A stretch of DNA of 64,000 nt, from positions 1 through 64,000 of IMG/VR virus record IMGVR_UViG_3300024999_000080; one strand, given 5' to 3'. The notes below the pieces were generated by a model. The model saw nothing but the letters and a program-made list of their open reading frames with translations, ran no database searches and was not told the DNA's origin. Of the stretch, positions 1,912 to 63,300 are shown in pieces. The first letter of the stretch is position 1, and each line of letters begins with the position of its first letter. The position numbers and the translations under genes are program-made. The DNA is from a virus.

Positions 1912-2571
1912 TTAATGTCAAATAGAAAAGATTGTTGTGAAACATATCATATATGTTTTAATCATGATAGTTGGTATTGTGATGAGTGTAAACGAAATAA
2001 AAATATGGTTGATTATTTAGACATAAGATCAGATCCTAGTTATGAAGGTGAATTTGATGAATTTATTAAAGACCTTTCTAAAAAAGAAATGCAGGAATCT
2101 CAAAAAAGATTATTATATGATGATGATAAATATTTACAAAAAGTATATCAAGAAATATTAAAAAGAAAAATAAAATAATTATACTTCGAAAGGTATGTTT
2201 CGAATCATATTGAGGAGGTGGAAAATAAATGAAACAAACATTAGGTTATTTAGTAGATAATATAACTAAAATACTTTATGAACATAATTCAGATATAATG
2301 TTACTTAGCCAAAATATTTCAGAAGATGAATATGATGTAGAAGCTTTAAATATTGTATTAAAGATTTTTGCATGTGATAATATTACAAACGTTAAAAATA
2401 TTATTACTGATACATTTGTTGAATATTTTGGTGAATGTGCTGTAACAAGAGATCAAGATTATATTAATATTGCTAAAGAAGTTTGGGTATTGTGGGAAGA
2501 TTATGTTAAATATAATATGAGTATGGCATGAAAGTAAAGTTATAAGTTATATAAGAAGGTGATATTAAATT

Positions 2572-2721
2572 ATGAAAAAAGGTGTTAGGTGGAGAGATGT
2601 TAAAGCAGAATTACTAAAAGATGAAGAGTTTAAAAATGAAGTAGAAGTTTCACAATCTGGATACGAAATTGCTTGTAAAGTTATTGAAGAATTTATTAAG
2701 GAATTTGGTGAAAAGGAGTAA
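2572..2721 (+). CDS. 49-aa protein resembling the N-terminal helix region of HigA/Xre antitoxins, without the HTH (not in ORF track)
   Basis: RBS AAGGTG; MKKGVRWRDVKAELLKDEEFKNEVEVSQSGYEIACKVIEEFIKEFGEKE. Confidence 0.45.
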   Translation: MKKGVRWRDVKAELLKDEEFKNEVEVSQSGYEIACKVIEEFIKEFGEKE

Positions 2722-3276
2722 TTGCTATGTTATCTGATATTAAATATGCCATAGAGATGAGTGTAATTGACTACTGTGAAGACATGTGTCCTTATAGATT
2801 GTGCAATGCATCTTATGATGACGGATATGAATTACCTTGTACGGTAGATAGGTGTTTTGTTAAAGAATATGCTGAGTATTTATTAAGGTAAATAAAAATA
2901 AAAAGGAGAGATGATTAATGAAAAATTATATATTGAAAACCATTGATACATATGGTTTATTTGGCGATAAGAAAGATTTTACTGATAAGCAAAAAGAAAG
3001 TCTGAAAAATCTAGGATTTAAATTAACAATTATGGATACTATTTGGGAAAAATATATGGGTAATTTTTTAGATATGATGCTAATACCAAATAAGAAATAC
3101 TTGTATTTTTATAAATCTAGTCATTTTCTGCCTTGTGAGTTGAGTGAAAATGTTAAGGAAGAAGACACTTTAAAAGAAGTTAATAAGATTATAAAAGAAC
3201 TGAAATTGATTGGTGTAATTTAAATTCCTGAAAACCTTAATCTATAAGAATTAAAAATAAAGGAGATGGATAAATA

Positions 3277-3657
3277 ATGAGAGAAATAATTTTCCGTGGC
3301 AAATGCATAGATGATGGTGACTGGGCGTATGGAGATTATTATTCCACTAACGAAATGCCAATTAGAGGTGAAGTAGGACATTATATTAAATGTGGATTAA
3401 ATGAAGAATATAGAGTTATTCCTGAAACAGTCGGTCAATTTACTGACTTAAAAGATAAAAATAATGTAGATATATATAATGGTGATCTAGTAAAATTTGC
3501 CGATGAGATACTTCAAATTAAGTGGAGCAGACTACTTGCTAGATTTGTTGGAAAAACAATAGATAATGAACATGATTTGTTTGCTTGTTATCAAGATTTA
3601 TATGAAGTTGTTGGGAATAAGTTTGAGAATATAGAATTGTTAGAAGGAGATAATTAA
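3277..3657 (+). CDS. YopX family protein
   Basis: MREIIFRGK..., PETVGQFTDLKDKNNVDIYNGD, EVVGNKFEN. Confidence 0.9.
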   Translation: MREIIFRGKCIDDGDWAYGDYYSTNEMPIRGEVGHYIKCGLNEEYRVIPETVGQFTDLKDKNNVDIYNGDLVKFADEILQIKWSRLLARFVGKTIDNEHDLFACYQDLYEVVGNKFENIELLEGDN

Positions 3658-5010
3658 AATGAGTGAAACAGTCTATTACAAAGGGAAATTAATACCTGTT
3701 GATTTCTTAATTAACGAAACATTAGAAGAAAGATGCAAAAGAATAATTGGAGATGTAGAATTAGAAGATTGTTTTGAATCTTACCAAGAGAAATTAATGG
3801 ATGATTATGACTACTATGAAAAATATGTTATTCATAATGATATTTTATATTCTGTTGAAAAGAATAGGCTAGATCCAGAACAAAGTATGTTTGTATCACA
3901 TAGGAATGATGATGGTACAGTTAATTTTGAGGTAAGATACTATGATGGTGGTACTAGTTTTGATGAAGCTATTGAATATGCTTTTGAGAATGAGAAGTAA
4001 AGTAAAATAATAGAAAAGAGGAAATAAACAATGAATATTTTAGATTATACAAACAAAACTTTTGACGAACTCCAATTCAATGATGAAACATTAATTATTA
4101 TGGCACATCAAAGAAAAATAATCGCTATTAATGATAATAAAGAGATGTGGAAAATTAAATATATTTTAGAAGAAATCGCTGATAAAATGGATGAGCAAGA
4201 AATAGAAGAGAATGAGAATGAGAATGATATAGAAGGATATAGCAGAAGCCATATTGTTAGAATGTTGGTCGATGCAATGGAAGAGGAGTCATATTTTCTT
4301 GAAACAAAAGGAGATAATGGTCGTATTGAACCTAGAAAGTTAAAAGTAATTAATGCAGAGAAATTATATGCTAATTTTGATTCAGAGGTTTCTATTTATT
4401 ATGGATATTTGAATAGCTCTGATGAATTTATAAAGCCAGAATGGTATAAAGTTATTGCTGAAGAACTTATTAATTTTGCTCTTAATAGTGGTAGGTGTAA
4501 TCCAGATACGATTGAATTGTTGACATTGTTTTCTGATGAATTGTTAGAGGAATATGATGCTTATAAAAATGGTGGAGATATGTTTAAAGTTATTGTTAAG
4601 GAATAAATAAAAGGAGTGATACAATTATGGGTTATGGATTTATTGGCTATAGCAACAGAGAAGAATTTAAAGATGGTGAAAGTATTTTCTATACATCATG
4701 TTCATATGCATATGAACCAATATTTAAAGAAACATTTAGAGAAGAAATTCATAATTTTAGCGGATATGTTTCAAAAGTAAAAATGATTAAATTCATTGAT
4801 GGAGTAAATAAATTAAAAGAAAATAAAGATAAGTATAATGGTATTGTAAAACCAATGCGTGGTTATTTAGACAATTGTTCATTTGAATCTTTATTAAGTG
4901 ATTTGGAAGTGCTTTGTGAGTTATTGCAAAATAAACAAGTAAAGTATTTAAATATAGCATAAATTCCATACTTTATTTGATAAATATATATGAAATATTA
5001 GGAGGTTATT

Positions 5011-8925: not shown

Positions 8926-9360
8926 ATGAATTTAGAACAAGCAATATCAATAGCATCATTGGCTCATACAGGGCAATTGGATAAAGGTGGAGAACCATAT
9001 ATCTTACATCCTTTAAGAGTTATGATGAAACTCAAAGATGAAAGACAAAGAATTATTGCTGTGTTGCATGATGTAATTGAAGATACTAATATCACTGATA
9101 TTGATTTATTGTATCAAGGGTTAGGTTATGATGCTGTAAATGTTATTTTAACTTTGAGTAGAAGAAAAAGTGAAAGTTATGATGAGTATATTGATCGCAT
9201 AAGTAAAGATGAATTTGCTATAGAAATTAAGTTGGCAGATTTAGAAGATAATATGGATATTTCTAGGATTAAGAATATGACAGGGAAAGATTATGAACGA
9301 GTAGAGAAGTATGGTAGGGCTAGAGAGAAATTGATGAATGTTTTGATTAATATGGGATAG
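8926..9360 (+). CDS. HD-domain small alarmone hydrolase-like protein (RelA/SpoT HD, Mesh1-like)
   Basis: AHTGQLDKGGEPYILHPLRV, AVLHDVIEDT, IKLADLEDN. Confidence 0.85.
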   Translation: MNLEQAISIASLAHTGQLDKGGEPYILHPLRVMMKLKDERQRIIAVLHDVIEDTNITDIDLLYQGLGYDAVNVILTLSRRKSESYDEYIDRISKDEFAIEIKLADLEDNMDISRIKNMTGKDYERVEKYGRAREKLMNVLINMG

Positions 9361-9963
9361 TTTAAAATAAAAGGTTTAATTGAGATTAAGGAGGAAAGTT
9401 TAATGATGTTTATTAGTAAAAATCCAGTACCTTTTACTGTGAAAGATTTGAAGAAGCGTTTAGAATATATGGATGACAATGTACCAATTAGACTTTGTGG
9501 ACAAGGTGATGGTCAATTCTTGGCTCTGGTTGGTCGTAATAATTATGAAACAATGATGTCATTTCAAAAAGAAAGTTATTTTACTGGATGGGATTTTGAA
9601 AATAATTGTGAGAAGATAATGAAATAATATTCGATAGTTTAAAAGGGGATTTTATATATGTTAGAAAAGAAAATATACTATTGTGTCTATTGTGGTAAAA
9701 AGCATGTTTTCGAGTTTAATTTTGAATTAGCTACAGAATTATACATTCCTGAATGTGATTGCGGAGAAGAGCAAAGAATGATTAATCCATAAATAGTTGA
9801 AATAGATATTAGGTGGGAATTGAAAGGAGAATGCATATGAATCCATGTGCAAGGTGTCCTTGGTTGGGAGTAGATGCCGTTTGCAGAGAATGTGAATATC
9901 AAAGTGACTATATGAGATTATCAGAAAAGTTAAGAAGAGAAAAAGAAATTGAGGAGAATAAAT

Positions 9964-10486: not shown

Positions 10487-12422
10487 TATGTCATTATTAA
10501 ATATTGAGCAACTATTAAAAGAAATAGAAGAAACAGATTGCAAACTTCCTCCTCATTTTATAGATGGTGAGGAGTATGAAGAGTGGTTAAGAAAAGAATT
10601 AATTAATGACGATGTGTAAATATATAATCTCAATCGAAGCACGCATTTGATAGTTGAAAGGAGAATTTATTATTGAATCAAGAAATAAGTAATTCAACAG
10701 GCTATTTGCTAACAATAGTATTTGGGGTAATTTTTCTTGTAACAATACCAATTAGCACTTATTTGGCTAGGAGAATAAATCGGTGAATTCGAAGGAGTGA
10801 ATATTAAATGCAAGTAGAAATAATTCACACAAATGAACTTAAAAAATCAGAATATGTATGGGCAGTACAAATTTATCAAACTAATGAGTGTCTAGATGCT
10901 TTTCAAACTTATCAAGAAGCAGAAAAATATTGTGAAGAAAATGATTATATTATTAAGAGTTATGGAAAGCGAACTGTTCCTAATGTTTATAATGTTTATA
11001 ATGTGAATTGTAAATTGTAAAATAAATATTTATAAACTATTGACGTATTGGTTGAGGATATGGTATGATATGGGTAAGAAGAAATTGAAAGGTGGAAGAT
11101 AAATGTCAGAGAATCTTAAACCTGAATGTCAACTCACTGGTATTAATGGTAATGTATTTAATATTATTGGAACTGTATCAAAAGCATTAAGAAATGCAGG
11201 ATTAAGAGATAAAGCAGTTGAATTTTCTGATTTAGCTGTACAGCAGGAAAGTTATGACGATGTTTTGAGATTGTGTTTTGAGTATGTAGATGTTTGTTAG
11301 TAAATTGTGAAAGGTGGAATCATCCAATGGACTTAAATACAATCAGTAACCTGACAGACGAAGAATTAAAAATTTGTTTTGATGAAATAGTTGATTATAA
11401 GCAAAATGGAGTTATGTCAGTAGACACTTTGACTAGAAAAGTCAGAAGCAACATTGCGGAGGAAATTAAAGTAAAGTCTTGGGATTTAGGTTGTGATTCC
11501 ACTAGTAATTACATCATGTTTGAAATTGCTAAAAGGCATTACGGAGTATCTTAAATTAGATACTCCTCTCCTTCCTAAGAAAACGAACTTAGAGACATTA
11601 TGGTGCTAAGATAGAATAAATGACGTAATTTATGGGTGAGAAAGGATGAAAAATATACTTAGAAAAGGCGACAATGTAATATTCAATAGACCTTATTGGA
11701 TTCTTACTAAAGGTAATACTAAGGTAGAAGTGTCTATTAAAGAGGGGTTAAAAGCTAAAATAGTGAGATTAAGTGATTGTTTTGGAGAAATGGTATATGA
11801 CTTAGAATTGTTTGATCACCCAACTAAAAATATGTTAATGGTATTTTTAGACCAGTATTATCACGAATAAAAGCATAAGAATTGAAACGTGAATTTCATG
11901 GGAAAGAAATTTAAGGAGATTTTATAAATGAAAATTAGATTATGTCAAAACGAATGTGATAATGGTGAAGTAACTTGTATAGGCTGTGTGCATTATGAAT
12001 CCGGAGATGATAGTGTAGGTCTTAGTGAAGGATGTACACATCCTATTCTTTATGACGAAGATGGAAATATTATTGATGATATTGAAGTATTAATTCTAGA
12101 TTGTTTAAGTAATCCAAAGCATTGTATCCTTATGGAAAGGGATAAAATTAATTTTTAACCGAAAAGGGGTAGTAAATTGGAAGAAGTAGATATTAGAAAA
12201 AGCAAAGCAAAGTGTCCAAAATGTAAATCTATAGATATTATAATTTATGAAAAATGCCTTCATATTCAATCATGGGAACAAAAAGATGGATTCATAGACC
12301 GTAACGAGGGATATATGAATCCAGAAGGGGTAGTCGGTACTTATGGTGAATGTGATTGTGGACATAAATGGAAATTTAGATGTTTACAGATTACTAATTT
12401 ATTTATTGAGGATAAGTTATGA
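10487..12422 (+). other. Small hypothetical ORFs (10487, 10808, 11103, ~11327, 11646, 11928, 12177), several Cys-rich
   Basis: Co-oriented RBS-preceded ORFs. Confidence 0.65.
11040..11069 (+). promoter_or_regulatory. sigmaA-type promoter
   Basis: TTGACG-N18-TATGAT with TG extension. Confidence 0.6.
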
Positions 12423-12528
12423 GTAAAAAATTATTAGATGAAATATGAGTAACATACTTATGTCGGATATTTCAGTACAATCCGAGAAAAATTAAGTTTT
12501 ATGGGAATTAGAAAGAAGGTTTGGAAAA

Positions 12529-13344: not shown

Positions 13345-13820
13345 AGAAGGAATGATATTTTATGGACTTACTACGGAGAATAGCAATGTATTTAATTTTT
13401 GTGATGTGTGCCGTACTAATACAATTTTGTTATTATCCTGCTTATAATCTTAATAACCTTTTCGCCAGTTTATTTTTAGCAATTTTCGTTGCAACTGTTA
13501 TTGTATTTGCAAGACCAGATATATTCAAATCAAAGAAAAAATTAGGATAAACTTATTCTTTGGATGGATTTTAAGGAGGTAGAACATTATGCAAATTATT
13601 AATTACATTTTTATACTTGCACTAATTCTAAGTGGAGTTATATCAATGTTCCCTAAGTATCATAAATTAGGTTTAAAACTACTTAAGTACGTTTTGTTTA
13701 CATTCATCCTTTTAAAATTTACTCCAGTTATTTATTCATATATTGACGGATTTGTGAAATAAACATTGATATTGGTATGATGAGGTGTTATATTTAACTT
13801 ATATATAGGAGGTGTTTAAC

Positions 13821-14702: not shown

Positions 14703-17700
14703 AAATCATATGTAATGAAAGTGAAAAGAAATGGTTAATAAAAGTATTAGAAAAAAGTGAATATGGATGCCCTAGATTACATTCATTGTCTAGATGTTTA
14801 ATACAGGCAACAGCAACAGAAGGATGTTTGCCATCAACTTTTGAAAATTGTATAGTTAATCAAATAGAATTCGTAATAACTTAAAGTGTGGTTTGATTTG
14901 GTAGAGAAAAGGAGTTGGGTATTATGAAATTTATTGCTAATGTTTTAGTAAAAATTGAAGTGGAAGCAGATTCAGAAGATTTTGCAAAGGAATTGTTAGA
15001 AGAAAGAATAGATGGATTATTTTTGGATATAAAGGGCTGTAATATTGAAAAAGGATGCTATTCATTGAAGTCAATTGGACAAAGAGTAATGAATATTCAA
15101 AAGGATAATTTACGATTCGTGTTGAAACTAAAGGATTCAGAATTATATTTAAATTCAAGTGAAAATGGAGTTAATTCTTACACAAATGATATTAATTTAG
15201 CTTTTGTATGGAAGTGTAATACCAACATTAGTGAATTGAAAATTGATGAAGATATGTATGAAATAGTTAAGATTTAGTACATGAAGGAGTTGAAATAACT
15301 TGGCAAAAAATAGTATCGACCTTAGAATCATCACAGAAAATCTAATGTTCGGAGGAATTAAAAATCATCAAGAATTTGAAGAATTGATTAAAGGCCACTG
15401 GGAATATAGAAAAGGCAAGACTGTGGACGATGTCACTGAAGCAATAGAAAAAGGTTTAAAGATGGGTCATGGTAAGGCTGAGAGGGAAGTTGAATGTGCT
15501 ACTATGTATTTGGAAACTGTTTTTAAGAAGGTTAAGGTTGTTAAAGTAATTTTGAAGGAGGACGATTAAAATGAAAATTGATCTAAATTTGCAAAGTGAT
15601 AGTTATAATTCACATTGTGAAGAGTTAACTATAAGTTTTGAAGTTATTGAAGATAAAGACTATGTATGGATTCAGCTTGGAGATAGGGAAGTTGGAGTTA
15701 GCAGAGAAGAATTTAGGAAATTGTTGGCTATTGTTTAATTTCAGAAATGTCTAGATTTAATCTAATTGTAAAGGAGAATATTATGAGTACAAGATGGATA
15801 GGAAGAATGACAAGACTAGCAGGTGATCAATCTACAGAGTATTTATTATGTGGTGAAAAATATATTGATTATTTAGCTATAATTGACGAAGATGAAAAAG
15901 GATATTTTTATCCACGGCTTCATAAAGTTTTATTAGACAAAACTTTAGGGAAAGATGAATTAATGACCGCATGGGCAACAAATTTAGCAAGTGCAAAGAA
16001 AATGATTTGTATGGACAATGGTTGGAAAAGTAAAGATTTTATATGGGAGAAAGAAGAAATTTAAGGATGTGAAAACATATGTTCAATGTAAAAGAATTTA
16101 ATGATTCAAGACTAATTGAACTCTGTAATGATATATATGATTGGGATACAGGAAATGGTGATATACCTGAAAATTCTAAATTAAAAAGTTTAATTTCTGC
16201 TCATTTTTCTGGTTATCCCAACGCTTATTATATTAGGGATTTAATTATAAGTGAAGCGTATGAAAGATTTAATAAAGTAGCTAAATTATTAGTAAGAGAT
16301 AAAACATGGTTTATAAAGTAATTAAAACGAGGATTTTGAAAGAGGTTGTTTAAAATGTTAGGAAATTGTAAGATTATAGTTGGAAGTGGATCATCAAAAG
16401 ACGGACGAAAAGGTTTAGCTTTATGGAATAATAATGATGATTATTATGTACAAATATTTGAAACAAAAGAAGAAGTTAATGATTTTATTAAAGAAATAGA
16501 ACAAAAAAAAGATGAGTTATTTACGAACAAATAAAACTAAGATTTGAACGTTTTTGAAAGGAGAATATTTAAAATGAATAAATTTGAAGAAGTATTTTCT
16601 GGAGTAGATATCGATAAACTTATTATGTATGAAATATACATTAATTTCTCTACTCATAATTTTGATGAATTAAAATTTGTATATGATAAAGCGGTAGAAT
16701 ATCACAAAACAATATTAAGTATAAGACATTGCGTTAAAAAGGCGATAAATGATGTTATTTTACAACATAAGAAAGTAGATGATTTTGTTAGGGAATTAAT
16801 AAAGAGTCTTTAAACCTTTGATTTTCTGGGAGCGAAAGGAGGTAACAAGAAGTGAATAAATTAACATTAGCTGAATTCGAGGCAATAGACAGAGTAAAAA
16901 TTAATGCTTTAATATCTTTGCTTGTTAATGAGGATGTTATTAATAGAAAAGAATTTTCGATAATGATAAAAAAGAATATTAATAATCTTGTTGATTGCAG
17001 TAGCAAAGAAAAGATAAAAGCAGAAATTAATATGTTTTTGATGAATCTTTAATATAGGAGGAATTATTAAATGAAATTACTATGATTATTCACATTAAAT
17101 CTTAATAATTACATTAAATTTAACTCTATTTTATTAATAAATAAATATTTAAAGGAGATTGTAATATGTATATGCCGATTTATTGTAGACAATGTGGCGA
17201 ACAATTAATCATAAGTAATATGGGATATGTAAGAGATGTAAACAACAAACCAGTGAGTATCTGTAATAATTGTTCTGAATTGGTTTTAGAGAAATTAAAA
17301 GCAGATAGACTAGTAGAAATTTATAAAGGTAATGCAATATATAAAAAAGATAATGTTTATTTCCCATATTGGGGATGTGCTTATTTTTATAATACCATTG
17401 AAGGCGTAAGAGATAGAATTGATCATCATGATATATCTATTGTTCCGACTGATTTGTTAAGAAAAGCAATAATGGGTGAAGATTTATTATAAATTATGAA
17501 TATTTATATTTGACTTTCCAACTCATTACATGCTATAATGAATATAGAAATAAATATATAAGGAGTGATGAATAAATGGCATCAGGCGAAGGAATTCGAA
17601 GTTTTATACATAAGCATTCATTATCAACAAGTTATAAGATAGTTCCTGAAGGAGATAGGAAAATTAATTATATCCCTGATGAAAAATATGATTGCCCAGT

Positions 17701-21399: not shown

Positions 21400-21879
21400 T
21401 TGCTAAGAGATGGAGAACCATGTAGTCATAGAGGTTGTTTAAATCATATCTCACATCCTTGTGAGGGTTGTGGAAGGATCAGAGGAAAGAATATAAAGAT
21501 GAAGGAATATAAGTTTAGAGCATGGGAACCGCTAAACAAGGAAATGATTTATTTTGACGGTTTTATTCCATTTAAAATAAGTGATAAATTTATTGAAGGA
21601 GCTTTGAGTTCACAGAATCAAGAGAAAAGATATTTAACAGTTATGAATTATGATGCTATTGAATTGATGCAATTCGCAGGAGTTGATGACTCAAGAGGGT
21701 TGGAAGTTTATGAAGATGATATTCTAGAAATTTGGATTGATGGTATCAAGCAAGATAATTATTATATTGTTGAAGATTCAAGAGAATTATATCTTGAAAT
21801 GAATAGGGATGATTCTTATTATCGTATATCAAAGATTAAAGTTGTAGGTAATAAGTGGGAAAATCCTGAGTTGGCATAA
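21400..21879 (+). CDS. YopX family protein (second copy)
   Basis: YKFRAW, LMQFAGVDDSRGLEVYEDDI, KVVGNKWENPEL. Confidence 0.85.
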   Translation: MLRDGEPCSHRGCLNHISHPCEGCGRIRGKNIKMKEYKFRAWEPLNKEMIYFDGFIPFKISDKFIEGALSSQNQEKRYLTVMNYDAIELMQFAGVDDSRGLEVYEDDILEIWIDGIKQDNYYIVEDSRELYLEMNRDDSYYRISKIKVVGNKWENPELA

Positions 21880-22421
21880 AACAAATATTTTAAGCTATAT
21901 TTTAGGAGGAAAAATAATGCTATGTCTAAGAAATGAAACTTGTCATAAAGATACGTTATTCTGTTGTTATTCGTGTGAAGTGGTATGCTCAACAAAAAAT
22001 GATTGCAATGATGAAGAATGTATAAACAATCCAAATAGTATTATAAATAAAAAAGAGCAAGATATTAAACAAAAAGACGATATTGAATGGTTACTAAAAG
22101 AATTATTAGAAGCAGGTAAATATGCAGAAGTAGACTTTGAGAAAATTACTGAGGTAGCAAGGCGTAACGGATATGAAATTGATGAGGAATTGGATTTAGT
22201 TGAAATTGATACAGAATAATAAAAGGAGGAAATGAATAATGAGTTATGGACGCAACCCATATTATATTTACAGCAGTGGCAGTGGTACTCTAGCAACAGT
22301 TTGAAAACTATATATTCCCATAAAAAACCAATTTGATAGGAAATAGAAATTAAACTTGACTTATTATATCAATTTATGTTATTATAAATATAGAAATAAA
22401 TATTTTAGGAGGAGAAAATAT

Positions 22422-25498: not shown

Positions 25499-25512
25499 TT
25501 GAGGTGAAAGTG

Positions 25513-29774: not shown

Positions 29775-29820
29775 TAAGAGGGAGAGATAAAATTTAATTG
29801 AGTGAATATAATATTTTAAC

Positions 29821-31374: not shown

Positions 31375-31422
31375 AATATATAAGTAAATATAACTAAGAT
31401 AAAGGAGAGATAATATAAATAG

Positions 31423-32043: not shown

Positions 32044-32056
32044 TAAATAAATATAC

Positions 32057-33120: not shown

Positions 33121-33158
33121 ACCATAAAATAATTGTATAGTTAATATTTACATATTTG

Positions 33159-33188: not shown

Positions 33189-33252
33189 ATTAATAAGGAA
33201 ATAATAAAAAATTATAAATATCTTATTAGAGATGAAGAGGAGATGTGTTATT

Positions 33253-34035: not shown

Positions 34036-34059
34036 AAGAAAGGAAGATTAAATAATTAA

Positions 34060-37572: not shown

Positions 37573-38619
37573 ATGTCCATCAATGAAGTTAACGAAGAAT
37601 TGCAAGATGAAGAGGTAGTATTTGAGGTTGATTCAGAAGTTAAAAAGGAGTTTCTAGAAAATCAATTAAAATCTACTAGAAGTTTCTACACTTATGTCCT
37701 CAAAAGAGCAGATGAATTTGAAACACAGGTTGGCAAGAAAATTTATGACTTCAATATTGAAGATCGTGATGAAATGCTAACTGTTCAATTCAAGAATAAG
37801 AACAAATGGACGTTTCAATCTGCTTTATCTCCTTTAAAAACTTATGTTGACTTCTGTATATCTAAAAGTTTAGTTAGACATAATGAGAACAGATTTATGA
37901 CCATTCTTCCTGCTGATTATAAGGATTATATTAATGACCAAGCACAATGTAATTCTTATATTCCTTTATCTAAATCTAGAGAACTTCAAAAAAGGTTGAA
38001 AAATGATCAAGATAAATTGATTATAGAGTTATCTAGTTTGTCTGTCAGAGGAAGAACTGAAAAGGGGAATACTCTTGAAGAACTCGTAAATTTAAAGGTT
38101 AAAGATATTAAATGGAAGACTAAAGAATTATATCTTACTAAAAACAATGGTGAACAAAGATATATTGAAACTGATGATTACACATTAGGTTTACTCAAAC
38201 GAGTTATAAATCAAACTTTCTATGTCTCTAATAATGGGTTAAAATCTAAGAAAAATGAGGATGGTATTTATGAAGAGACTAATAGAGGTAGGGCTATAAG
38301 TCCGACTGAATATGTATTTAGAGTTCCCGGAAAGAACAGATTAGGTAAAGTAGATTATCAATTTTTCACTAGCAGAATTCAAAGGATGCAAGGTTGGTTA
38401 GAAGCTCCTTATTTGACTAGTTCGAATTTATACTTCTCAGCGATTTTAGACTATGCAAAAGAGAAGATGGATGAAAAAAAGGCAAAAGGAGAAAAATGTG
38501 AATTAACCAGAGAAGACTATATTCAAATTAATGAGCGATTTGAGTTTGGTGAAAATGGAGAAAAATATGTATTCAAAACCAGAGATTTAGTTAAAATGTA
38601 TTTTGGTAATGGAGAGTAA
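37573..38619 (+). CDS. Tyrosine-recombinase-fold protein with degenerate catalytic box II; YopR/MrpR-like master repressor candidate
   Basis: SAM-like N-terminus (LKTYVDFC); RG....LEELVNLKVKDI box I; TSSNLYFS replaces HxLRH. Confidence 0.65.
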   Translation: MSINEVNEELQDEEVVFEVDSEVKKEFLENQLKSTRSFYTYVLKRADEFETQVGKKIYDFNIEDRDEMLTVQFKNKNKWTFQSALSPLKTYVDFCISKSLVRHNENRFMTILPADYKDYINDQAQCNSYIPLSKSRELQKRLKNDQDKLIIELSSLSVRGRTEKGNTLEELVNLKVKDIKWKTKELYLTKNNGEQRYIETDDYTLGLLKRVINQTFYVSNNGLKSKKNEDGIYEETNRGRAISPTEYVFRVPGKNRLGKVDYQFFTSRIQRMQGWLEAPYLTSSNLYFSAILDYAKEKMDEKKAKGEKCELTREDYIQINERFEFGENGEKYVFKTRDLVKMYFGNGE

Positions 38620-41079: not shown

Positions 41080-44000
41080 GTGTTATTTATGATTAGAAGA
41101 CCTGCAAAAGAAACCTTTATTAACGATATCTGGTGTGCGATTCCTTACAAAAATAATAAGGATAAAATTAGGATTACTAAAGAACTAGAAGCAAATAGAC
41201 ATCGGAGAGGCATTAAATTTATTGAAGATGATGAACGTGGAAATATAATTTATTCTCATAAAATGGAGCAAGGTGCATTTCATTGATACATAAATCTAAA
41301 AATATTTTTAAATAAATCTTACCAAGACCCCCATAATTTACAATTCCCATTCGTATAATCTTATAAGGATTAAATAAAATTATAAAGAAAAGAGTGAAGA
41401 GTAATATGAGAATTACCAAAAGTGTAGAAGTTACAAAAAATGAACAATTTCTAGTAGGTTCTCTTTGTAATAAATGTGGTGAAGTGTTTGAACCGCATGA
41501 TGATAAAATACAATCATTTAATTTACAACTTGGGTATCACAATTGGCAATATGAACTCTGTGACGATTGTATTGTAGATATGGTTAGAAGTTTTCTTATA
41601 GTCCCATCTGGCTTTATGAGCGATCCTAATTTTACTTCTTCATTCGATATTGACCATGAATTACACCAAAATTTGTTTGACGAGTGGAAACTATCAGGCA
41701 AATGGAATTGTGATGAAAATCCTTGGAGAGACTTCTATAGTGAAGATAATTCAGATCAAGAATTTGAATCTTATGAGGAATATTATGAAGAAATTTCTAA
41801 TGCAATAGAAGTACGCAAACCATTACGTATCAACGTTGTAAGGTTGGCAACTATTCATAAAATTGGACTTGTAAAGGAAAGGGGCAATAAAATTAAATGA
41901 AAAAGCAAAATGAAGATAAATACTTACCATATACAAAGAAAGATTTTAGAAAATATTGGTGTGATCCTGAATCTAGTTTTCTAAAGATGCAAACCTTCGA
42001 AATTATTAGACCCCTTACTGAAAAGGAGAAATCTGATTGGACAAAAGGTGAAGGCTATGATTACAATGAGGAAATGTATTTAATTAGAAATAATAATGGC
42101 GAGGAGCGTGAAGTCTTTGATGTCGAAATTCTTATTGAATATGAAATAGACTCTGAGACATGGAGATGTTGTATAAGTAATTTGCTAGAAAGTATGGAAT
42201 ACGATGATGAGGTTATTATGGAATTTATAAAAGAATGTAAAATAGAACAGTATATTAAAAAACATTGTTAGAAAGGAGTTGATGGGTTAAATATGATTTT
42301 GAGCAATGAAGAATTAATCAAACTTAAAGTATTGATATTGGCAGATTTAGATGAAGAAGATAATTATAATTGTATGAAATGTACTCCTGAAAATCCTTGT
42401 TGTAATTTAATTAGCATATGTAATAAATATGGAACATTCAATTTTATTGATGGTGCAAAGGATATGGTTAGAGATTTACTTGATACCATTGAAAGTTTGA
42501 AAGATGATTTATTTAATGCAAGCATAATTGACAATTGTATAAATTGTGAAAGAAGTAATAGAACATTAGAGAGATGTATTTTAGAAGGGGATGAGGAATT
42601 GGAATGCCTTTCAGATAATTATAATTGGCATATTAGAAGGAAATAAGCAAAGTAATTACTATATGAAAGGATGAGAAAATATTGTATAAAAAATTATTAG
42701 ACAAAGGATTTAAACCTTACTATTATACCAATGATGATTTCCTAACCTCTACATCGTGCAAAAGTAGATTATTTTATAGTCTAAAAGTTAATAACGAAGA
42801 TTTACAAAACTCTATATTAAATGTGCTAAACAAATATAATGATTATTTCTCTATTTTATTAGAGCAAGATTTAGTATCTTGGATTGAAACTGATGAATAT
42901 TTAGAATCATTTTGGTGGTATTTTTATAATACAGATAAAGATAATATTGAAATATCTTCAGAAGAAATGAAGAAAATACTAGAAGTTTTACCTAACAAAT
43001 TTATTTTCGAACATAAAGATTGGTAAATAAAATCTATGTTTGATTCTAAGTTAGAAGAAAGGAGAAAATTATGATTTGGTTCCCTTGGGGAATGGTATGT
43101 GGAATATTATTGTCTGTAGTATCATTTAGTAGGTATTTATACAAATACAAATTAGATTTATTATTAAAGGCTTCTAATGGAGATTTAGAAGAAATATTAA
43201 ATCATGTAGTAAGATTAAGATTGGAGGATCAATAAAATTGGAACTAAAAAATTACTCTGAAGAATGTTTAAAATGCAAATGTAGAACTTGTAAATCAACA
43301 TATGATAGATCAGATATGTATGCCACTTGCTTTACATGGTGTGAAGAACATTGTAAAGGAGAAGATCCTATTGATTTTAGAGAAGATATAAATAAGGAAT
43401 GTCATACTCCAATCATTGATGATAAAAATATAATGATAACCGTAGAAGAATATAAAACTCTAAAAGAAAAGGCAAGTATGTATGATGATTTGTGTAAGTA
43501 GGAAGGAGTAGCTTATGAAAATGAATTTTTCCATAAACATTGACAATAGTGATATAGACTATGTTGAATCTGAGATAATTAAAGAGTCAGCAAGACAGGT
43601 GATTAATGAAGTTTTATCAAATAGATATGAACATCATGGAAGAACCTTTAAAGATAAATTGAAAGAAGAAATTAAAACTATGTTGACCGACATAATGGAT
43701 ACTGATTTTAAAAATGAAGTTAAGAACGCTTTAGTATTAGATTTAGAGAAAAAATATATAAGAACAAAACAATACAAAGAAGTTAAAGAGCAGTTTGAAA
43801 TATTATCTGAAACTGAAACAAAAGCAGGTTTGAAAGATTTTATAAGTGACATTGTTAAAACTGAAATTAGAACTAAGTTTAAATAAAATACAGATTTCGA
43901 GTTAAGTAAAATAAAATTTAGGAGGAAAACAAATATGAATAATAAAGAATTTGACATTAATTACATGATAGGTGATAATCTTATTAATTTTCAAATCGGT

Positions 44001-46755
44001 ACAGAAGTATACTATATTGAAAGTAAATACTCTGAAAAATATGAGTATTGTAAAGAATGTAAAACTGGTCATTCAACTGGAAAACAAATTTTATATTATA
44101 TTAGACCATGTACTATTTGTGGTTTTGAGATAGAAGGGAATCATTCTTTTTCATATAATATAAAAAATAGTTTTACATTGCGTATTAGGGTAATTGATGA
44201 GAATGATTCATCAAAAGTCTTTAATGTGAATGAAGTTTATTTTACTGAAGAAGACGCACAAGAGATGGTGGATAAGATGAGTAATAATCTAAGCAAATAG
44301 AATAGTTGATTGATTTGAATAATGAAAGGAGGAAAAATCATGAGTATATATTTAGACACTGTAAATTGCATCGTCTGTGGAAAAGAAGCATTTATTTATA
44401 CTGGACATGTAAAAGATAATAATGAAGATATTATTGCAGGATTTTGTTCAAATGATTGTTATGAATCTATAAAATCAAATAATATTGGTTGCTATGGAGA
44501 ATACAAAGAAGAGATGGGAAAACAAAGTAGAATGTGGTAGAAAGGAGAACAAAAAAGCAAATGAGAAATAAACTAAAATTAATAATAGAAAAAGAAAAAA
44601 CTTATACTGACTGGCTTAAACATGAACATAATTCTCTTACATACAATATCCAGCAATTGACAAATGAAAAATGTGATATTGAAAACAAACTAATAAACAA
44701 TCTCATCTGCCCAAAATGTTATTTTCCATTAACACAAAATAAATTCACAACTTATGGCGAAACTTATTACGAATGTACTAGTTGTGATTTTTCTATTCAG
44801 CAGTAAAAAGACCCTGCTCGAAAGCAAGGCCAAGTGCAATAAGACGAGAACAAAATTAGTTGACGAATGGTAGTATATCCATATCAGGGATAATTATACA
44901 AGATGAAAGAAGGAAATTAACAAATGAAATCAAGAGATATTGTAATCTTATTAGGATTAACAGAAATTGCATCACAATGTATTGATAATGAAACAATGTC
45001 AGAGGATGAATTCAAAAGTTTCTTTGATGGTTGTGATCTTGATAAAATTGAAGAGCAGAATCAAATAGAAGAAAATGTTGCACTAGAAGAATTAAAAATT
45101 ATGCTAAAAGAATATGGAAATATAATAAGAGAGGAACAAAATGAAAAATGAAAATATTAAATGTAATTTAGAAGTTGAATGTCGAGATGGAACGATTCAG
45201 TGTAAAACCATTTGTCCTGTTCATTTTATGGAAGATAGATGCTGTAAATTTTGTTTGGAAATTAATGTTTGTGATAAGATTTGTGGTTTTATTAAAATCA
45301 ATTTTAAGGAGTGAATACATAATGAAATGTATAAAGGAGAATTGTAATCTATCATTCATGTCAGGTAATTGTGGATATTGTAATGTTTTGGAAGCATTTG
45401 TTTTTGGAATGGAGAATAATGAATTAAAATGCTCTTTACCAGATAAAATTGTAGTAATGGAAAAGGAATTAAATCATTATAAATGTGCTTTGGATAAGGT
45501 GATAATGTATCATGATGATAACGGAGGAATAGATTAATTTATGAAATGTATTGGTGAGAAATGTTCTAGTTTCAAAACAGATTATTTTTATCCATTATGT
45601 TTAGAAAAAAATTGTAGGATATTTGAAGGTAGTGAATGTAAATTACTTGATAAAATTAAGGAAACTAGAGATGATTTAGTTAGAATGTGTGATTTGTTTG
45701 AGAATTTATTGGAGATTAATGATTATAGTTTAGATGAAATTGTTGATGGAATCAATTAAAAAATGTATTCGTTTGAATTAAAAGAAAGGAGAAATTTTAT
45801 GTTTCTTACTGGCGAGAATGTAACAATTCGTGATTCTGATTTTGAATTTTATTTAAAAGGCAAACCTACTGGAGAATATGCAAAAGGTAGGATTATTAGC
45901 AAAAATGGTTCTTTATATGTTGTTAAATTATATTGTAACGGAGAAGTTTATGAGATTAAGGAGTCATATCTTTATATATCATGGTCGTGAATCGTATTTG
46001 AACTGAGTGAAAGGAGAGTGATAATTATGTGGAATTTCATTGCAGGAATATTTTTAGGATATATGCTCAGACCATTAATAGAAACAATCATAGGAATAGC
46101 GGTTAAGATATTTAAAAATGCTTATTCAGAATATAAAAATCAATAGAGAGGATGATAAATAAATGGAAGATGCGTGTTATAACTGTGTTGCTAATTGTCC
46201 AGGAGATATTCATTGCAAGCCATTTAAATGTAAATATTATAAACGCTATGATAATGATGTGCTAGATCATGAAATGCAAACAAACAAAGATAAAAGAATT
46301 ATGATAACTATTGGATATCTTGAACATTTTAGTCAAAATAGTATGGAGAAATATGTATTCTATTCTTACAAAGAATTCTTTCAGTTTTGGAGTCATCATA
46401 GTAATCAAGGGATAATTAAATTATTTGGCTGTAGTGAGATGGAGGATGATTAATGTCTGGATTAACACCTGAAAAGAAAGCAATTCTTAAAGGTCTTATG
46501 GGTAGTTGCAAATGTCCAATTAGTCTAAGTTTGTTGTGTATGGAGGAGAGATATAAAATGAGAAAACCATTAATTGAACTTATAGTACCTAAGTCTGGAG
46601 ATTGGGAAGTATTAAGAATGAATTTAGGTGAAGATTTTAAACACGAAGGACATTCAATTCCTAATGGAGCATGGATTAAGTTATTAGAAATGTTAGGTTA
46701 TGAGGTTGAAGTAAAATGTATTTCAGATGAAGATATGGATAATGAGAGATATTAG
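41080..46755 (+). other. Array of small hypothetical ORFs, many Cys-rich; includes 45141..45314 and paralogues 45322..45537 / 45541..45759
   Basis: Co-oriented RBS-preceded ORFs; MKCIKENC/MKCIGEKC...C.L.DKI similarity. Confidence 0.65.
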
Positions 46756-46870
46756 AATTTCACAGGCATACAAAGCAGTCATACCAAGGGTTTCAAAATT
46801 ATAAAATCCTAGCAAATTGTGATTTTATGGGAGTTAAAAATAAATTAAAATAAAAAGGAGAAATGATAAA

Positions 46871-50907: not shown

Positions 50908-50954
50908 ACACTATATGTAGTGTCTAGTATTACAAAACACACTACATATAGTGT
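50908..50954. promoter_or_regulatory. Tandem NrdR boxes, 31 bp apart, inside a 19-bp inverted repeat (50905-50957)
   Basis: ACACTATATGTAGTGT (50908) and ACACTACATATAGTGT (50939); each is 1 mismatch from acaCwAtATaTwGtgt. Confidence 0.75.
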
Positions 50955-51004
50955 TTGAAATCCCATAAGTTATCGATTTCGAGGGATAAGGAGTCAAAAC
51001 GACA

Positions 51005-53661
51005 ATGAAAAATGATATTCCACAACGTATTAAAGACAATCCAAGCATTTATATACCCGATGGCCTATATTGTCACGGAAGAGCATCAAAAATAAGAGTG
51101 TGTCCTTTTTGGGATTTAGACAAAGAGAAACCAGAACAGCAAAATGGTTATTGCCATTATTTAAAACAAGGTGATTGGGATTTTGATTATACAGGATTAC
51201 TTTGGGACATGTGTAAAGAGTGCGACATAAATTTATCTTCATAATTTAAAATACCAAACTTATTTGATAAAGAAAGGAATGATGAAAATTAATATAAGAA
51301 AAGATTTATTTAAAATTTTTCAAGAGAACAAAGATGAATATGATTTGTATGAAAAAGTAGTGAATTATATTGAGTCAAAAATAGAAACCACAAAAGGCGA
51401 GGAGAATGCAGAATTTTATTATCAAATAATGCAACTAGAAAATAGTATTAATAATGCAGGATGGGAAGATCGTCATTCTCAACAAATCCAAAAATTATGG
51501 GATATTCAAAATAATATTACAGGTAGATATGAAAAATATTTATCATAGAATCAAAGGATTATTTCATGCCAAGTAAGAAAGGAGTAAACTATGCGTAAAT
51601 ACATAGTAGATAATTTAGAAAATACATCAACCAATGAACATAATTTCGACCAAGAATATCACAATAAATATATTTCTAAAACAGGAGAAGTAATTAAACA
51701 TGATTATAAATCAGGAGTATTTAAATCATTTATATGTTTAGGCTTTGATAAGGATGAAAAAGGATTCTTTACAGATGTTGATTGGTTTCATGTTTGTGAT
51801 TTGAGGAATCCACAGTTTGGTGGTTAAATTGGAAAGGTGTAAGGAGTATGAACAATGAAAATTAGAATTATCAAAGATATGTCAGCAGAAAATAATAGTA
51901 CAGTTTTAATTACTAAATTTATTGGTAAAGTGTTTGATGCAAAACTATTTGGGTTTACCACAGTTAGAGTAGATTTCGGTGAGGATTTAGGTGAGTTACA
52001 TGTTTATAAGGGAGAATACGAGGTTGTAGAATCCTAACACGAAATTTAACATTTATCGTAAAATAGAAAGGAATTGATTTAAACAAGATGGAAGAAAGAT
52101 TTATTGAGTGGACTACTAGGAATATAGAATTTAAAACAAACTCAAACAACTAATGTATCAGAGTATCAAAGGAAAAATTAAACATTATGAAATGGATAGT
52201 GGAAAAGAGAATAGAAATAAAGGCATAGTGTGTAAATGTTGTTTTTATCTAAGAAATACGTTTGGATTTTCAGCAATGACATTATCATATTGTGGAATCT
52301 GTAAAGAACCAATTCTCAATGGTAGTTCAGATACAAATAAAGTGTGTGATAAATGTGCAGGGATTAATGATTTATGCATACATTGTGGTGGAAAAATGGA
52401 TTGAGTTCAATTAAACTTATGGACTTATAGGAAAATAAAAAGGAGGATGGCAATGGACTTTAAAGTAGGAGATAGGGTTAAAGTTGTAAGAATATCTAAT
52501 GAGGATGATGTATTTGATGTTGAACCAATGTACTTAATAGGTAAAACTGGTACAGTTGTGACAATTGAGAGAAGTAAGTATATGCCTTTAGATGACACAG
52601 ACTGTCCCTATCAGATAAAGTTTGATGATGATATTTCTCAAGAATCAGGCAATCTTTATTGGGAAGAAAGAGAGTTAGAACTGATAGAAGCAATTAATGA
52701 AACTAAAATGACAGGAAGAAAAAAATTCAATTTAATATTTGCAAATATGACGAATGAAAGTTTAGCAGATTTGTTTCTTGGAGGAAGTTGCCCTAGTGAA
52801 TTTGGTCTTTTTGACAAAAAAGAAACCGGATGTCCAGATTTTATTTGCACAAGTTGTTGGGAAAAAGCTTTAGATATGGAGTATGAACAATAAATGGAGG
52901 AAATAATATTATGACAATTTGCAAAGAATGTGAATTTTATTCAGAGGATTATTTAACTGGATTATCTCCACAAGATCAATTAGATCATACTAGTGGTCAC
53001 TGTATGGATTCTAGTAATCCAGATTTTAATGAATGGGCAAGAACATTTGGTAAAGGTATTGCTAGAGAAGATTCATACACAAATCCTAAATGGTGTGCTA
53101 AAATTGATAATCCTGAAACAACAGTTGAAGATTATAGTGAAGAGGAAATTAGTGAATTAGTTGCAGTAGAAAAAAATTATCGTAAATTAATTGCATATAT
53201 AAAACATGCAAGATCAAATGATATGCTTTGGTATTAATTAAATAGAAGGAGTTGATTAAATGGATTTAAAAGTTGAACCACAAAAACATTCAATAATGAC
53301 ATTGTATGGAACAGATACTCAAGAAATACTCCGTTTTGAACCTAATGGCGATATCTTTATTCATGGCAAATTATCAGCTAATGATAGGGAAATAACTGAT
53401 GGATTTAGAGAATTTTTAGGACAACAGGGATTTTAAAAATCAAATAAACAGAACATTTTATGTTGATTGGAGGTGAAAGTAATGAATGATAAAATCTTGG
53501 TTGAATTAACTAAAGAAGAAATGAACATTGTCAAGAATGGAATGTTGCTAATTTTATCCCTTTCAAAGAGAAGTCAAATTGATTTGAGAAATAATGCTAA
53601 AGATTTATATGAAGGCATTTATAATAAATTTGATTTATTGTATGAAAATAAATGGTATTAA
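51005..53661 (+). other. Small hypothetical ORFs; 52447 has an SH3-like N-terminus paralogous to 56232
   Basis: FKVGDRVK/FKVNDRVK...YL...G....Y.I.F...W.E.EL shared. Confidence 0.6.
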
Positions 53662-55193: not shown

Positions 55194-55383
55194 TAAATCT
55201 TAAAAATTCAAAAAGTGAAAGTGCCTTGTAGCAAGGGTTACAGGGCATGGTACTTCCATTAAAATCTGACTTTTATCGTAAAATAAACCTTGCAATTATT
55301 AACAAATTAATGTATAATTCATAGTGAACTAGGAAATAATATTTACTATAATCCTATGTCAATAAAAGGAGGTAGTAAATATT

Positions 55384-55689: not shown

Positions 55690-56651
55690 ATGGAAAATTA
55701 TTTTGAAGTAACTAAACAATCGTCTTTACACCAAGAATACATGGATTATATAACTAGTGATAAAATAATGAGGGAAATTTCCCATGAGTTTTTATCCAAA
55801 AATAATATTAACACAAAGGAATATTCTTCAACTAAAGATACTTTTTACATTGTCCCAACTGAAAAAGATATTGAGGACTTTAGCAAAATGCTTAATAAAA
55901 AATTGGAAAATGGTTTAAGAGCATTTAAAGCAAAATCTAAAATAGGCAAAGCATGGATAGATACTCTTAAAGAGAAGGGAGTACAACCATTACATAAACC
56001 AATGTTGATGCTGTATTTTAATGTTTATGGCGAAACACAAAGCAGATTATTTGCCATTGAAGATAAAGTATATTGTTCTTTTAAGAGTGAGCATAATTTT
56101 GAAAATCCAGAAGGTTTTATAGAATTAAAAGCAAGTGAGTTTTATAAAATCGTAGAAGATAAAAATGAAAGAAGGACTCTAGCAAGGGACTTAATCTAAT
56201 CTTTTCTAGGAAAATAAAAGGAGGAATTATTGTGAAATTTAAAGTAAACGATAGAGTTAAAATTATAGAAATTGGTGCTACAGATCCTTCATATTTGTTA
56301 AATCAAGTTGGAATAATTATCAAAATAAGAAGAAATAGCGATTATGTTTATGAAATAGAATTTGTAGATGAAAATATGAAACATATAGAACAAGTTTTAT
56401 GGCAAGAGCATGAATTAGATTTTGATAAACCAATTATTAATCAATTCACGAAATTAATGAGTAGTGATTGGGAAGCATGGTATATGAATGGTAAATTAAT
56501 TGCGGAAGGGCATATCGTTAGGGTTGAAAGTATTTTAGATGCTTTAACTGATATATTTCCTAATACATATGATTCTATTGAAATATCAGATGAAATTGCA
56601 GAAGAAGGATTTAGTGAAAATTTAGAGGATATGAATATCACAGTAAATTGA
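55690..56651 (+). other. Two hypothetical ORFs (55690..56199, 56232..56651)
   Basis: ORF track plus RBS. Confidence 0.65.
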
Positions 56652-56696
56652 CCATTCAAAGTATATGTGCATAAATAATAATTAGGAGGTAATGTG

Positions 56697-61501: not shown

Positions 61502-61517
61502 ATTGTAAAATAAATAT

Positions 61518-61547
61518 TTGACAGTGATATTATGCGTATGTTATAAT
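61518..61547 (+). promoter_or_regulatory. sigmaA promoter
   Basis: TTGACA-N18-TATAAT with TG extension. Confidence 0.7.
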
Positions 61548-61578
61548 GAATATATACTAAAGAAAGAGGAGGTAAGAA

Positions 61579-63300
61579 ATGAAAGGTTTATATCAAAAAT
61601 ATCTTATATTCAAATCGGACGGTTCACCAGTTGACCCAAATGCAGAATACATAGTTTTAAGAATAGATGCTGATCAATGTGCAAGAAGAGCAGTAAGATA
61701 TTATGCTAATCAGTTACTTCGCGAAGGAAGTTTAACTCAATTAGCTGATGACCTAAGAAAAAGATGTGATTATTACTGGATGAAAGAGCAAGGATTTACG
61801 GATGAAGAAATAGAACGATCTTTAAAAGAAATACATAAATAATCCAATAAGTTATTTCATTCGAAGGAGATTAGAAAGGAGGTTACTTATGAATAGATAT
61901 CCAAGTGAAACTGAAAACTGTGGTAACTGCAAATACAGTCATGGTGATTGTTATGATCGTTGGTATGAAATTAATGAAGTAGATAATAGTAATTATCTTG
62001 GCAAGGGTGAAATAATTAACTGTTGGGAACATGAATAGTTAAGGAGAGTGTTTAATTTAATGAAGAAAACGGTAGAATTAAAGTACCTAACACCTTTGGA
62101 ATTTGTGGCAATGTATGCCAGAGAGGAATTAAAAGAAGAGTGTTTTAAACTTGAAAAATATGCTCAAAAGACTATATTGGGAATTATTGAATTGATTAGC
62201 AAAAATGATACAGATAAATTAATTAATGAAGTTTTTGATAAATTTGCTCCAGAAGTTGGATATCTATATTGTGAAGATCATAATATATTTCACGAATATG
62301 AAAAATGTCCATTCTGTCAATTAGGGATACGAGTTGGTTAAATAATTATAAAATAAATATTAGGAGGAATACATAAATGGAAGAGTTAAAATTATACAAA
62401 TTTAATGATGGTGATTATGAGCATTGGATTTTTAGCAAATAACCTTGTCCAAGCAATTGATTACTTTGTTCATGATTATTGCGGAGAAGATGAGTCACAG
62501 TTTGAATATGGTTTTACCATCAATCTAATTGATAATGGAACATTAGATATCGAATTTGAAGATGAAGGCGAAATGATATCTTGGAGAAAAATTATGAATG
62601 AGTGTAAAGTAATTCCAATTTGTATTGGGACGAATGTAGATTAATTCTCATATTTTCAGGAAGTTACGATTCTAAGAATCAAGCTATAAGCCACTTTCAA
62701 GGTTCGTAACTTCCATTAAAAAGTCGATTTAAATGGAGGTGAAATTATTGAAAAAATATCCTTGGAATAAATCAGAATTAGAATCAATACATAATGAAAT
62801 ATTACAAACTACATCTGAACAAAAATATTATATCTTAGGGGTAGCTCAAGGATTTTATCATATTTATCAAGTGTTAAATAAACATAAGGATAAAACTTTT
62901 ACTGGTTTAGAATTGATGGAAATTATCAAATATGCAGGTAGTAATGAGCAAAAAATAAAAGAATATTTTGATAGATTGTTATTAGATTTAGAAAGTGAAT
63001 AAAAGAAAGAAGGAATTAACAATGACAAAAACTACAGGATTAACTATCCATCTTTATACAACTAAAGAAGAATTGGACAATGCTAAAAATGGAATCAGCA
63101 CAATTGTAGGATGGACTAAAGAACAGAAACAAACTGGTGCAATTTATCATATCAGTGCGTCTGCGGATATTTGTGATGTTCTAGAAAAGGAAGTAAGAAT
63201 TAATGTTTCTAAAGTAAAAGAACAGATGGATGCGGCTGGATTAATGGTAGGTGAAGCAATTGGTAAAGAATTAGAAAAGGTATTTAAGGCATTTGCTTAA
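61579..63300 (+). other. Small hypothetical ORFs; 62377..62644 is frameshifted at a T5 run near 62430
   Basis: MEELKLYKFNDGDYEHWI continues as LANNLVQAIDYF in another frame. Confidence 0.6.

Follow-up and report, generated by a model that had tools for sequence, protein, structure and literature searches.

Palindromic elements with position-specific centres at the gene junctions of a predicted SPbeta/Tsamsa-like phage: probable joints for ordered gene-cassette exchange

How the mosaic genomes of phages come to have breakpoints that coincide with the borders of genes has long been an unsettled question, and two views of it are held: either illegitimate recombination is followed by selection, or conserved linkers guide the exchange. 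The question is raised again by the IMG/VR record IMGVR_UViG_3300024999_000080, a contig of 76,877 bp with 29% G+C from a groundwater metagenome, whose first 64 kb form the window analysed here. Between the genes of this contig we find a recurrent 26-bp dyad, TCCNWTAAAA-N6-TTTTAWNGGA, which consists of 10-bp inverted arms around a 6-bp centre and which we call the junction dyad or joint. An earlier sequence-only reading of the window had noted about 25-30 such palindromes at gene boundaries, and had suggested that they either shuffle accessory gene cassettes by an integron-like or pdif-like mechanism or serve as operators of a recombinase-fold repressor encoded at 37573. Comparison of the contig with its relatives suggests instead, with a probability of roughly 0.6, that the sites are address-coded crossover joints for ordered gene-cassette exchange between related phages. 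Ordered linkers that keep their 6-bp centres while their surroundings are replaced are the pattern that the linker model requires, and this pattern is rarely seen.

The contig contains 31 junction sites, each of which sits in the space from a stop codon to the ribosome-binding site of the next gene. The 28 sites within the window bear out the earlier count, and the palindromes that had been cited individually were recovered in place or a few bases away (2182-2207, 11612-11637, 11878-11903, 21872-21897, 22316-22341, 50961-50986 and 62712-62737). The left arm often holds a TAA or TAG stop codon, and the eight cases that had been pointed out, at 4955, 13543, 14876, 16527, 16806, 21872, 43879 and 44293, were all confirmed. 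The right arm ends 0-40 nt upstream of the next start codon and is followed directly by the ribosome-binding site, which it often abuts or overlaps. In long spacers (12481, 27865, 46807 and 50961) the full dyad is kept away from the stop codon. A site-free core had also been described, and we detected no dyad from 27.9 to 43.9 kb.

Perfect palindromes with a 6-nt spacer show no genome-wide excess (55 with stems of at least 6, compared with 44 expected), and the signal becomes visible only with a degenerate model that is restricted to junctions. We built such a model as a weight matrix, by iteration over junction DNA from seven sites with TTTYNWGGGA, and the iterated consensus was CC.ATAAAA-N6-TTTTAT.GGA. 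All 22 matches of the full matrix that score at least 12 bits lie in junction DNA, compared with 0.24 expected from Markov simulations of junction DNA, which shows that the motif is far commoner at junctions than random AT-rich DNA would allow. A matrix trained solely on the sites of three relatives gave 16 matches, of which 15 are in junctions, although junctions make up 13.7% of the contig. Furthermore, the number of inverted half-site pairs in the contig peaks at spacer 6 (24, with 2-12 at other spacers), in agreement with the constant 6-nt spacer noted earlier. In the 230-kb relative G001, there are 48 such pairs at spacer 6, 31 at spacer 5 and 11-15 at most spacers, which corresponds to an excess of about 35 sites. 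The spacer-6 peak is present in the contig, in L002 (a stretch taken from G001), in L003 and in L018 (which belongs to the relative G006), as well as in G001 as a whole.

Other routes to the motif gave different elements. The output of k-mer enrichment was dominated by the ribosome-binding site, and a Gibbs sampler returned an AT-rich box that precedes TTGACA early promoters. The dyad itself has neither -35 and -10 boxes nor a stable hairpin. A promoter reading, either sigma-F/G-like or for a phage polymerase, was dropped because no consistent -35 exists, the symmetry of the motif speaks against it, and the space upstream of the ribosome-binding site is too short.

The IMG/VR relatives with collinear homology measure 62-230 kb, and those compared were G001 (complete, 230 kb), G002 (181 kb) and G006 (62 kb). 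The anchor genes are 80-94% identical among close relatives, and most of the small genes between the anchors have no counterpart. In comparisons among the contig and these three genomes, we found 50 between-genome pairs of sites with identical centres, compared with 6.8 expected from composition. Collinearity holds for 48 of the 50 pairs, and for 15 of 15 between the contig and G002. No centre is repeated within any one of the genomes compared, and none of the 141 centres is self-complementary. Over 20-60 nt to either side, the flanks of the 50 pairs are about as alike as random sequence (identity 0.31-0.39 vs 0.30), and the identity of the arms is 0.60-0.62, compared with 0.54-0.56 for unrelated sites. 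In a leave-one-out profile, the per-position identity of the centre is 0.81-0.94 against a background of 0.18-0.23, and the excess ends at the border between arm and centre. An identical-centre partner was found for 20 of the 31 junction sites and for only 2 of the 9 in-gene look-alikes, with one of these two out of order. The centres thus behave as addresses, each unique in its genome and specific to a position.

The DNA between the joints is replaced. Consecutive matched joints enclose 36 intervals, of which none is the same over its whole length, and in 22 of them tblastx similarity is low or absent (coverage below 15%). The runs GACGTA > CGTGAA > ATTAAG > TTATTC and TACCAA > GGATTA > TTTAAC > TTATGG delimit single slots, and the contents of these slots differ in both length and sequence between the contig and G002. 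In the slot from GGATTA to TTTAAC, three phages carry three unrelated cargoes. At 27865 the homology with G002 stops at the border of centre and right arm, at a place where G002 has an additional gene. At 21872 the part shared with L002 is limited to the inner arms and the centre between them. L002 also has an extra gene that is flanked by CAAATAATTTATGGGA and CAATAATTTATGTGGA, which are two copies of CAA(A)TAATTTATG. The earlier link between the palindromes and accessory cassettes is thus supported insofar as the same ordered centres recur while the genes between them are replaced; the integron mechanism attached to it is not.

The symmetry of the dyad bears on what reads it. Base frequencies are equal in the left and right arms at every position in sites that were chosen symmetrically. 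The better-scoring arm is the right one in 39 of 73 sites and the left one in 34 of 73, and left-arm TCC is as frequent as right-arm GGA. Complementarity between the two arms of a site (5.53 of 10) is the same as for shuffled partner arms (5.59 of 10, p = 0.69). Because each arm fits one half-site consensus, TCCNWTAAAA, with no extra pairing, the dyad symmetry does not come from selection for pairing. It fits a double-stranded protein-binding site, the predicted signature of a symmetric dimer. An RNA hairpin, a terminator and an RNase III site were dropped as candidates because the arms of one site do not covary. The outer TCC/GGA positions are confined to this clade. The inner junction pattern, (T)AAAA-N6-TTTT(A), has the same spacing optimum also in SPbeta and in the distant relatives L010, L007 and L004; in L007 a generic A-run-N6-T-run junction peak is accompanied by a few full dyads.

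We propose that the joints act as linkers that would split the accessory-gene arm of the genome into ordered slots. Related phages would meet in one cell, either by co-infection or by infection of a lysogen, and a crossover at joints with a common centre would trade a gene or gene block for the partner's content of the same slot. The exchange would leave gene order and the ribosome-binding site downstream intact, and, because the centres within one genome are unlike, its joints would not recombine with each other. Two parts of this model are inferred, namely the position of the crossovers (within the centre or at it) and the reading of the arms by a symmetric dimer. It is possible that a host enzyme or an unrecognised phage enzyme acts at the joints. 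Such a catalyst might be a site-specific recombinase that requires identical centres, for example with strand exchange of the tyrosine-recombinase type, or a nuclease that makes 6-nt staggered cuts that are then ligated; short-homology annealing across the 14-bp AAAA-N6-TTTT block is a further candidate route. A more specific scheme, in which a putative dimeric enzyme on the arms would cut both edges of the centre with a 6-nt stagger, so that a natural, centre-homology-dependent exchange swaps slots and enforces gene order, we regard as tentative and rather doubtful. If real, it would be a phage version of recombinase-mediated cassette exchange, or of ordered assembly in the manner of Golden Gate cloning, and an enzyme that reads the joints would provide a new tool for the ordered assembly of many DNA parts.

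Several observations weigh against exchange at the joints. About 9-10 of the 27 homology boundaries between the contig and G001 fall in site-bearing intergenic regions, compared with about 20% of junctions overall; this figure is an unscripted hand count of the homology table against the site list, and the enrichment of BLAST breakpoints at site-bearing junctions is merely modest. Where one flank is homologous, the break can fall within the 26 bp or on either side of them. Many breaks between the contig and G001 lie at site-free junctions. Among the 15 mosaic joints listed of 53 in contigs of the source metagenome, none is at a dyad, and those that can be placed coincide with promoter boxes or with the starts of genes. 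No recombination event was observed directly. The complete relative G001 has no match to PF00589 or PF00239, and the contig's sole recombinase-fold protein appears to be catalytically dead, as judged from its residues. In addition, the pairs were defined by identity of the centre, and the centre-only profile is therefore partly circular; the leave-one-out, collinearity and offset controls lessen this circularity without removing it. A flank-anchored alignment of junctions was too noisy for a comparison of centre and arm conservation.

The alternative that survives best is that a dimeric DNA-binding protein of the phage (the 37573 protein or another) uses the dyads as operators, or as stoperator-like roadblocks, to silence or time the accessory arrays, with recombination a by-product of the only sequence that is shared. 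Dyad symmetry without pairing within the site would suit such a protein, and so would outer TCC/GGA positions that are specific to the clade. Many repressor sites spread over a phage genome are known from the stoperators of mycobacteriophage L5 and the CIR sites of phiC31. L5-type stoperators are numerous repressor sites in short intergenic spaces that follow the direction of transcription and are bound by the phage repressor. In comparison, the joints fit in their location and would be putative binding sites, and orientation cannot serve as a criterion for symmetric sites. On the other hand, operators would leave unexplained that conservation is highest in the 6-bp centre, which is not contacted, and that this centre is position-specific. 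The sites, moreover, have no promoter and are placed in the space from the stop codon to the ribosome-binding site. We consider this explanation unlikely.

The contig does encode a protein of the MrpR family, and this 37573 protein was examined as the possible binder. It carries PF22822 and PF22823, and its family profile matches 9rd5 at 3.5e-36 and MrpR 8a0a at 2.2e-27. Identity of the homologues is 88% in G002, 71% in G006 and 28% in G001, and G001 has the same arms as the contig despite its 28%-identical MrpR-like protein. Furthermore, no homologue was detected in L007 (record 98% complete) or L010 (78% complete), both of which have the A-run-N6-T-run junction peak. From these genomes, the 37573 protein is judged not to co-vary with the sites. 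A precedent for a multi-site repressor of this family exists in the SPBRE boxes bound by MrpR, a protein that keeps 3 of 7 catalytic residues and has lost recombinase function (PMC10516654). The SPBRE/Phi3TRE boxes of MrpR (SroF) are promoter-located, non-palindromic A-tracts of 15-26 bp that are read by a monomer, and SroF binds as a monomer to a non-palindromic box of 26 bp (PMC10516654; bioRxiv 10.1101/2025.11.27.690993). SPBRE and the joints are alike in being repeated at many intergenic places of a large temperate phage of Firmicutes with a gene for a recombinase-fold repressor. However, the joints are palindromic, lie outside promoters and do not follow the MrpR homologue, and the suggestion that they are operators of the 37573 protein was consequently not upheld.

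It is also improbable that the element serves only to punctuate expression, as an A-rich stop context, a U-rich leader or a weak intercistronic RNA hairpin at compact spacing. This would account for the frequent TAA stop in the left arm, for a right arm that often abuts or overlaps the ribosome-binding site, and for the generality of the A-run-N6-T-run pattern among distant relatives. It would not account for the full dyads that lie far from the stop codon in the four long spacers named above, for a left TCC that is as common as the right GGA, for arms that do not covary or for the sharp spacing optimum, and position-specific conservation of the centre has no explanation at the RNA level.

With tyrosine-recombinase core sites of the lox/FRT/dif type, in which two inverted arms of about 10-13 bp flank a centre of 6-8 bp, the joints share inverted arms at a 6-bp centre and partners with identical asymmetric centres. 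The dif and pdif sites of XerC/XerD, the latter in the pdif modules of Acinetobacter plasmids, measure about 10-11/6/10-11 bp and have an A/T-rich inner arm and a variable centre. Joints and dif/pdif are thus alike in geometry, and in the mobile gene modules that they flank. The arms of pdif, however, are two different, well conserved half-sites for XerC and XerD, and its centre is weakly constrained, whereas the joints have a single loose symmetric arm consensus and the centre is the conserved part. Of the likeness to dif/pdif sites that had been proposed, the arm-6-arm geometry is what holds, and a resemblance of the arms to those of Firmicute dif sites is tentative. Integron attC sites, for their part, are imperfect palindromes that fold as a single strand, with halves that stay paired while the sequence varies from site to site, and they work with an adjacent integrase and its attI site. 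Although arm-6-arm is the geometry of a tyrosine-recombinase core site and the cassettes are bounded by sites, an integron-like or pdif-like system with a dedicated phage tyrosine recombinase has little in its favour, since there is no attC-like folding (5.53 vs 5.59), no tyrosine recombinase above the PF00589 cut-off in the contig (best match 16.8 bits, cut-off 27.1) and no recombinase, tyrosine or serine, in G001, and the 37573 protein is below that cut-off and aligns with the non-catalytic MrpR/SroF. The family of this protein has a conserved Thr at the Arg-I position, as placed by a weak profile alignment to true recombinases (hhalign, E = 0.056, box I alone covered), and no HxxR box. Because the sites do not follow the 37573 protein and G001 has no recombinase, the operator reading and the dedicated-recombinase reading are both disfavoured.

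Exchange between joints with like centres has an engineered parallel. Heterospecific lox and FRT sites, used with Cre or FLP, have inverted arms and an asymmetric centre of 6-8 bp; only identical centres recombine, and a cassette between two unlike sites is exchanged without deletion. The comparative pattern suggests the same behaviour for the joints, although no recombinase was found for them. The linkers of the modular theory of Susskind and Botstein, such as the boundary sequences of lambdoid phages, are short conserved sequences at module borders that were proposed to guide exchange, and the cases are few and irregular. The joints differ from these classical linkers in forming a regular series of about 30-50 per genome with position-specific centres. 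The closest documented natural case is that of the PeSL cassettes of T4-type phages (Arbiol et al. 2010, PMC2839356). PeSL and joints are both short repeated non-coding elements among small accessory genes in hyperplastic regions, and at both there is insertion, deletion and replacement between related phages. PeSL are longer, and contain a sigma-70 promoter and a terminator hairpin, and like copies recombine within a genome to give mini-circles (PMC2839356). In contrast, the joints are 26-bp dyads without promoter or hairpin, each with a unique, position-conserved centre. We regard the joints as a variant of phage mosaic-boundary linkers; no description of junction palindromes in SPbeta-like phages was found in the searchable literature.

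The gene content of the contig suggests that it is part of a large temperate SPbeta/Tsamsa-like phage of Firmicutes. CheckV puts its completeness at 44%. All of its genes are on the plus strand, and the majority are small and of unassigned function. Among the others are genes for an MrpR-family "lytic cycle repressor", an Ant-like anti-repressor, AgrB, MazF-like proteins, a protein kinase with a PP2C phosphatase, an NAD-dependent ligase and an SNF2 helicase. The nearest cultured phages with an MrpR-like gene are the Tsamsa group, Geobacillus E3, C. botulinum c-st and SPbeta, which are large temperate siphophages of Firmicutes. A megablast search of the contig against known phages gave no match. 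The distant records, found with the 685-aa protein encoded at 18584-20641 as query, are classed as proviruses; this query protein occurs across unrelated phage families, so that the temperate reading depends chiefly on genes of the contig itself.

Joints of the window, and the gene for the recombinase-fold protein, are listed in Table 1.

Table 1. Junction dyads and the recombinase-fold protein gene in the window. G1, G2 and G6 stand for G001, G002 and G006.
Feature	Position	Strand	Centre	Remarks
dyad	2182..2207		GGTATG	perfect 7-6-7 palindrome of the generic GAAA-N6-TTTC type, without outer TCC/GGA
dyad	4955..4980		TCCATA	stop codon in left arm; same centre, collinear, in G2
dyad	9358..9383		TAAAAG	weak
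dyad	10771..10796		CGGTGA	right-arm GGA overlaps ribosome-binding site; same centre in G6
dyad	11612..11637		GACGTA	same centre in G2
dyad	11878..11903		CGTGAA	same centre in G2; cargo to next joint unrelated
dyad	12481..12506		ATTAAG	strong; same centre in G1 and G2
dyad	13543..13568		TTATTC	stop codon in left arm; same centre in G2 and G6; TTATTA in G1
dyad	14876..14901		GTGTGG	degenerate; same centre in G1, G2 and G6; copy in L018 (G6) a near-perfect palindrome
dyad	16527..16552		CTAAGA	stop codon in left arm
dyad	16806..16831		CTTTGA	same centre in G2 and in G1 (L002 8730, score below list threshold)
dyad	21872..21897		CAAATA	same centre in G1 and G2; neither flank homologous
dyad	22316..22341		AACCAA	strongest in contig; relatives have ATCAAA at the matching place
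dyad	27865..27890		CATGTC	homology to G2 stops at border of centre and right arm; extra gene there in G2
dyad	43879..43904		TACAGA	stop codon in left arm
dyad	44293..44318		TAGTTG	weak
dyad	46807..46832		TTGTGA	strong; same centre in G1 and G2
dyad	50961..50986		TATCGA	directly after a long hairpin; same centre in G6
dyad	51242..51267		TACCAA	
dyad	51546..51571		GGATTA	same centre in G1 and G2; three unrelated cargoes in slot to TTTAAC
dyad	52035..52060		TTTAAC	
dyad	52407..52432		TTATGG	
dyad	53440..53465		AGAACA	
dyad	55255..55280		TCTGAC	
dyad	56638..56663		TTGACC	
dyad	61843..61868		TATTTC	
dyad	62712..62737		AGTCGA	left arm overlaps 3' side of a hairpin; same centre in G1
MrpR/SroF-family protein, tyrosine-recombinase fold	37573..38619	+		considered as binder or enzyme; no link to joints found

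Long stable hairpins at 50919-50972 and 62674-62729 lie directly upstream of the joints at 50961 and 62712 and overlap their left arms.

In SPbeta (L044, SPbeta 84417-134416), a junction element (A/T)TAAAA-N6-TTTTA is present between many of the yoq, yor, yos and yot genes. The core motif thus occurs in a phage of Bacillus subtilis, and the idea of exchange at joints is directly testable in a model phage. The conserved SPbeta promoters of the form TAGACAAA...TATGTATATAAT, which precede yorE, yorM and yorZ, resemble SPBRE as published and differ clearly from the junction element.

The window also contains strong early promoters of the sigma-A type (TTGACA-N17-TATAAT or TATACT), at about 6800, 17530, 18420, 23010, 32070, 36110, 48370 and 61530, which are preceded by a conserved AT-rich box, AAAATAAATATT. 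By its position at promoters, this box is a candidate operator of an MrpR-like repressor. Several mosaic joints of the source metagenome link early-promoter regions (11041>17529, 17120>17507 and 17168>18394), a behaviour that resembles that of PeSL.

The 685-aa protein matches phrog_1735 with 890 bits, and its function is unassigned. Homologues that are 35-65% identical occur in more than 500 phage records, among them Vi1-like phages of Salmonella and Klebsiella, phiCbK-like phages of Caulobacter and Tsamsa-like phages of Bacillus, which belong to unrelated families, and the protein is therefore no marker of this lineage. It has no Pfam or PDB match, and a search of solved structures gave no useful result.

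Other genes of the window include an agr-type locus at 29358-34683, with AgrB at 34060-34683 (PF04647, 3.4e-35), a 267-aa PemK/MazF-domain protein at 33232-34035 and a DUF5317 protein at 31423-32043. A PP2C-like phosphatase (24875-25498) adjoins a Ser/Thr protein kinase (25495-27216) with a 4-base overlap, and the two are 87-90% conserved in L002. A protein with a GmrSD_N domain is encoded at 12529-13344. There are also two HNH or homing-endonuclease genes, at 29821-31374 and 34784-35512, and one of them is present threefold in G001.

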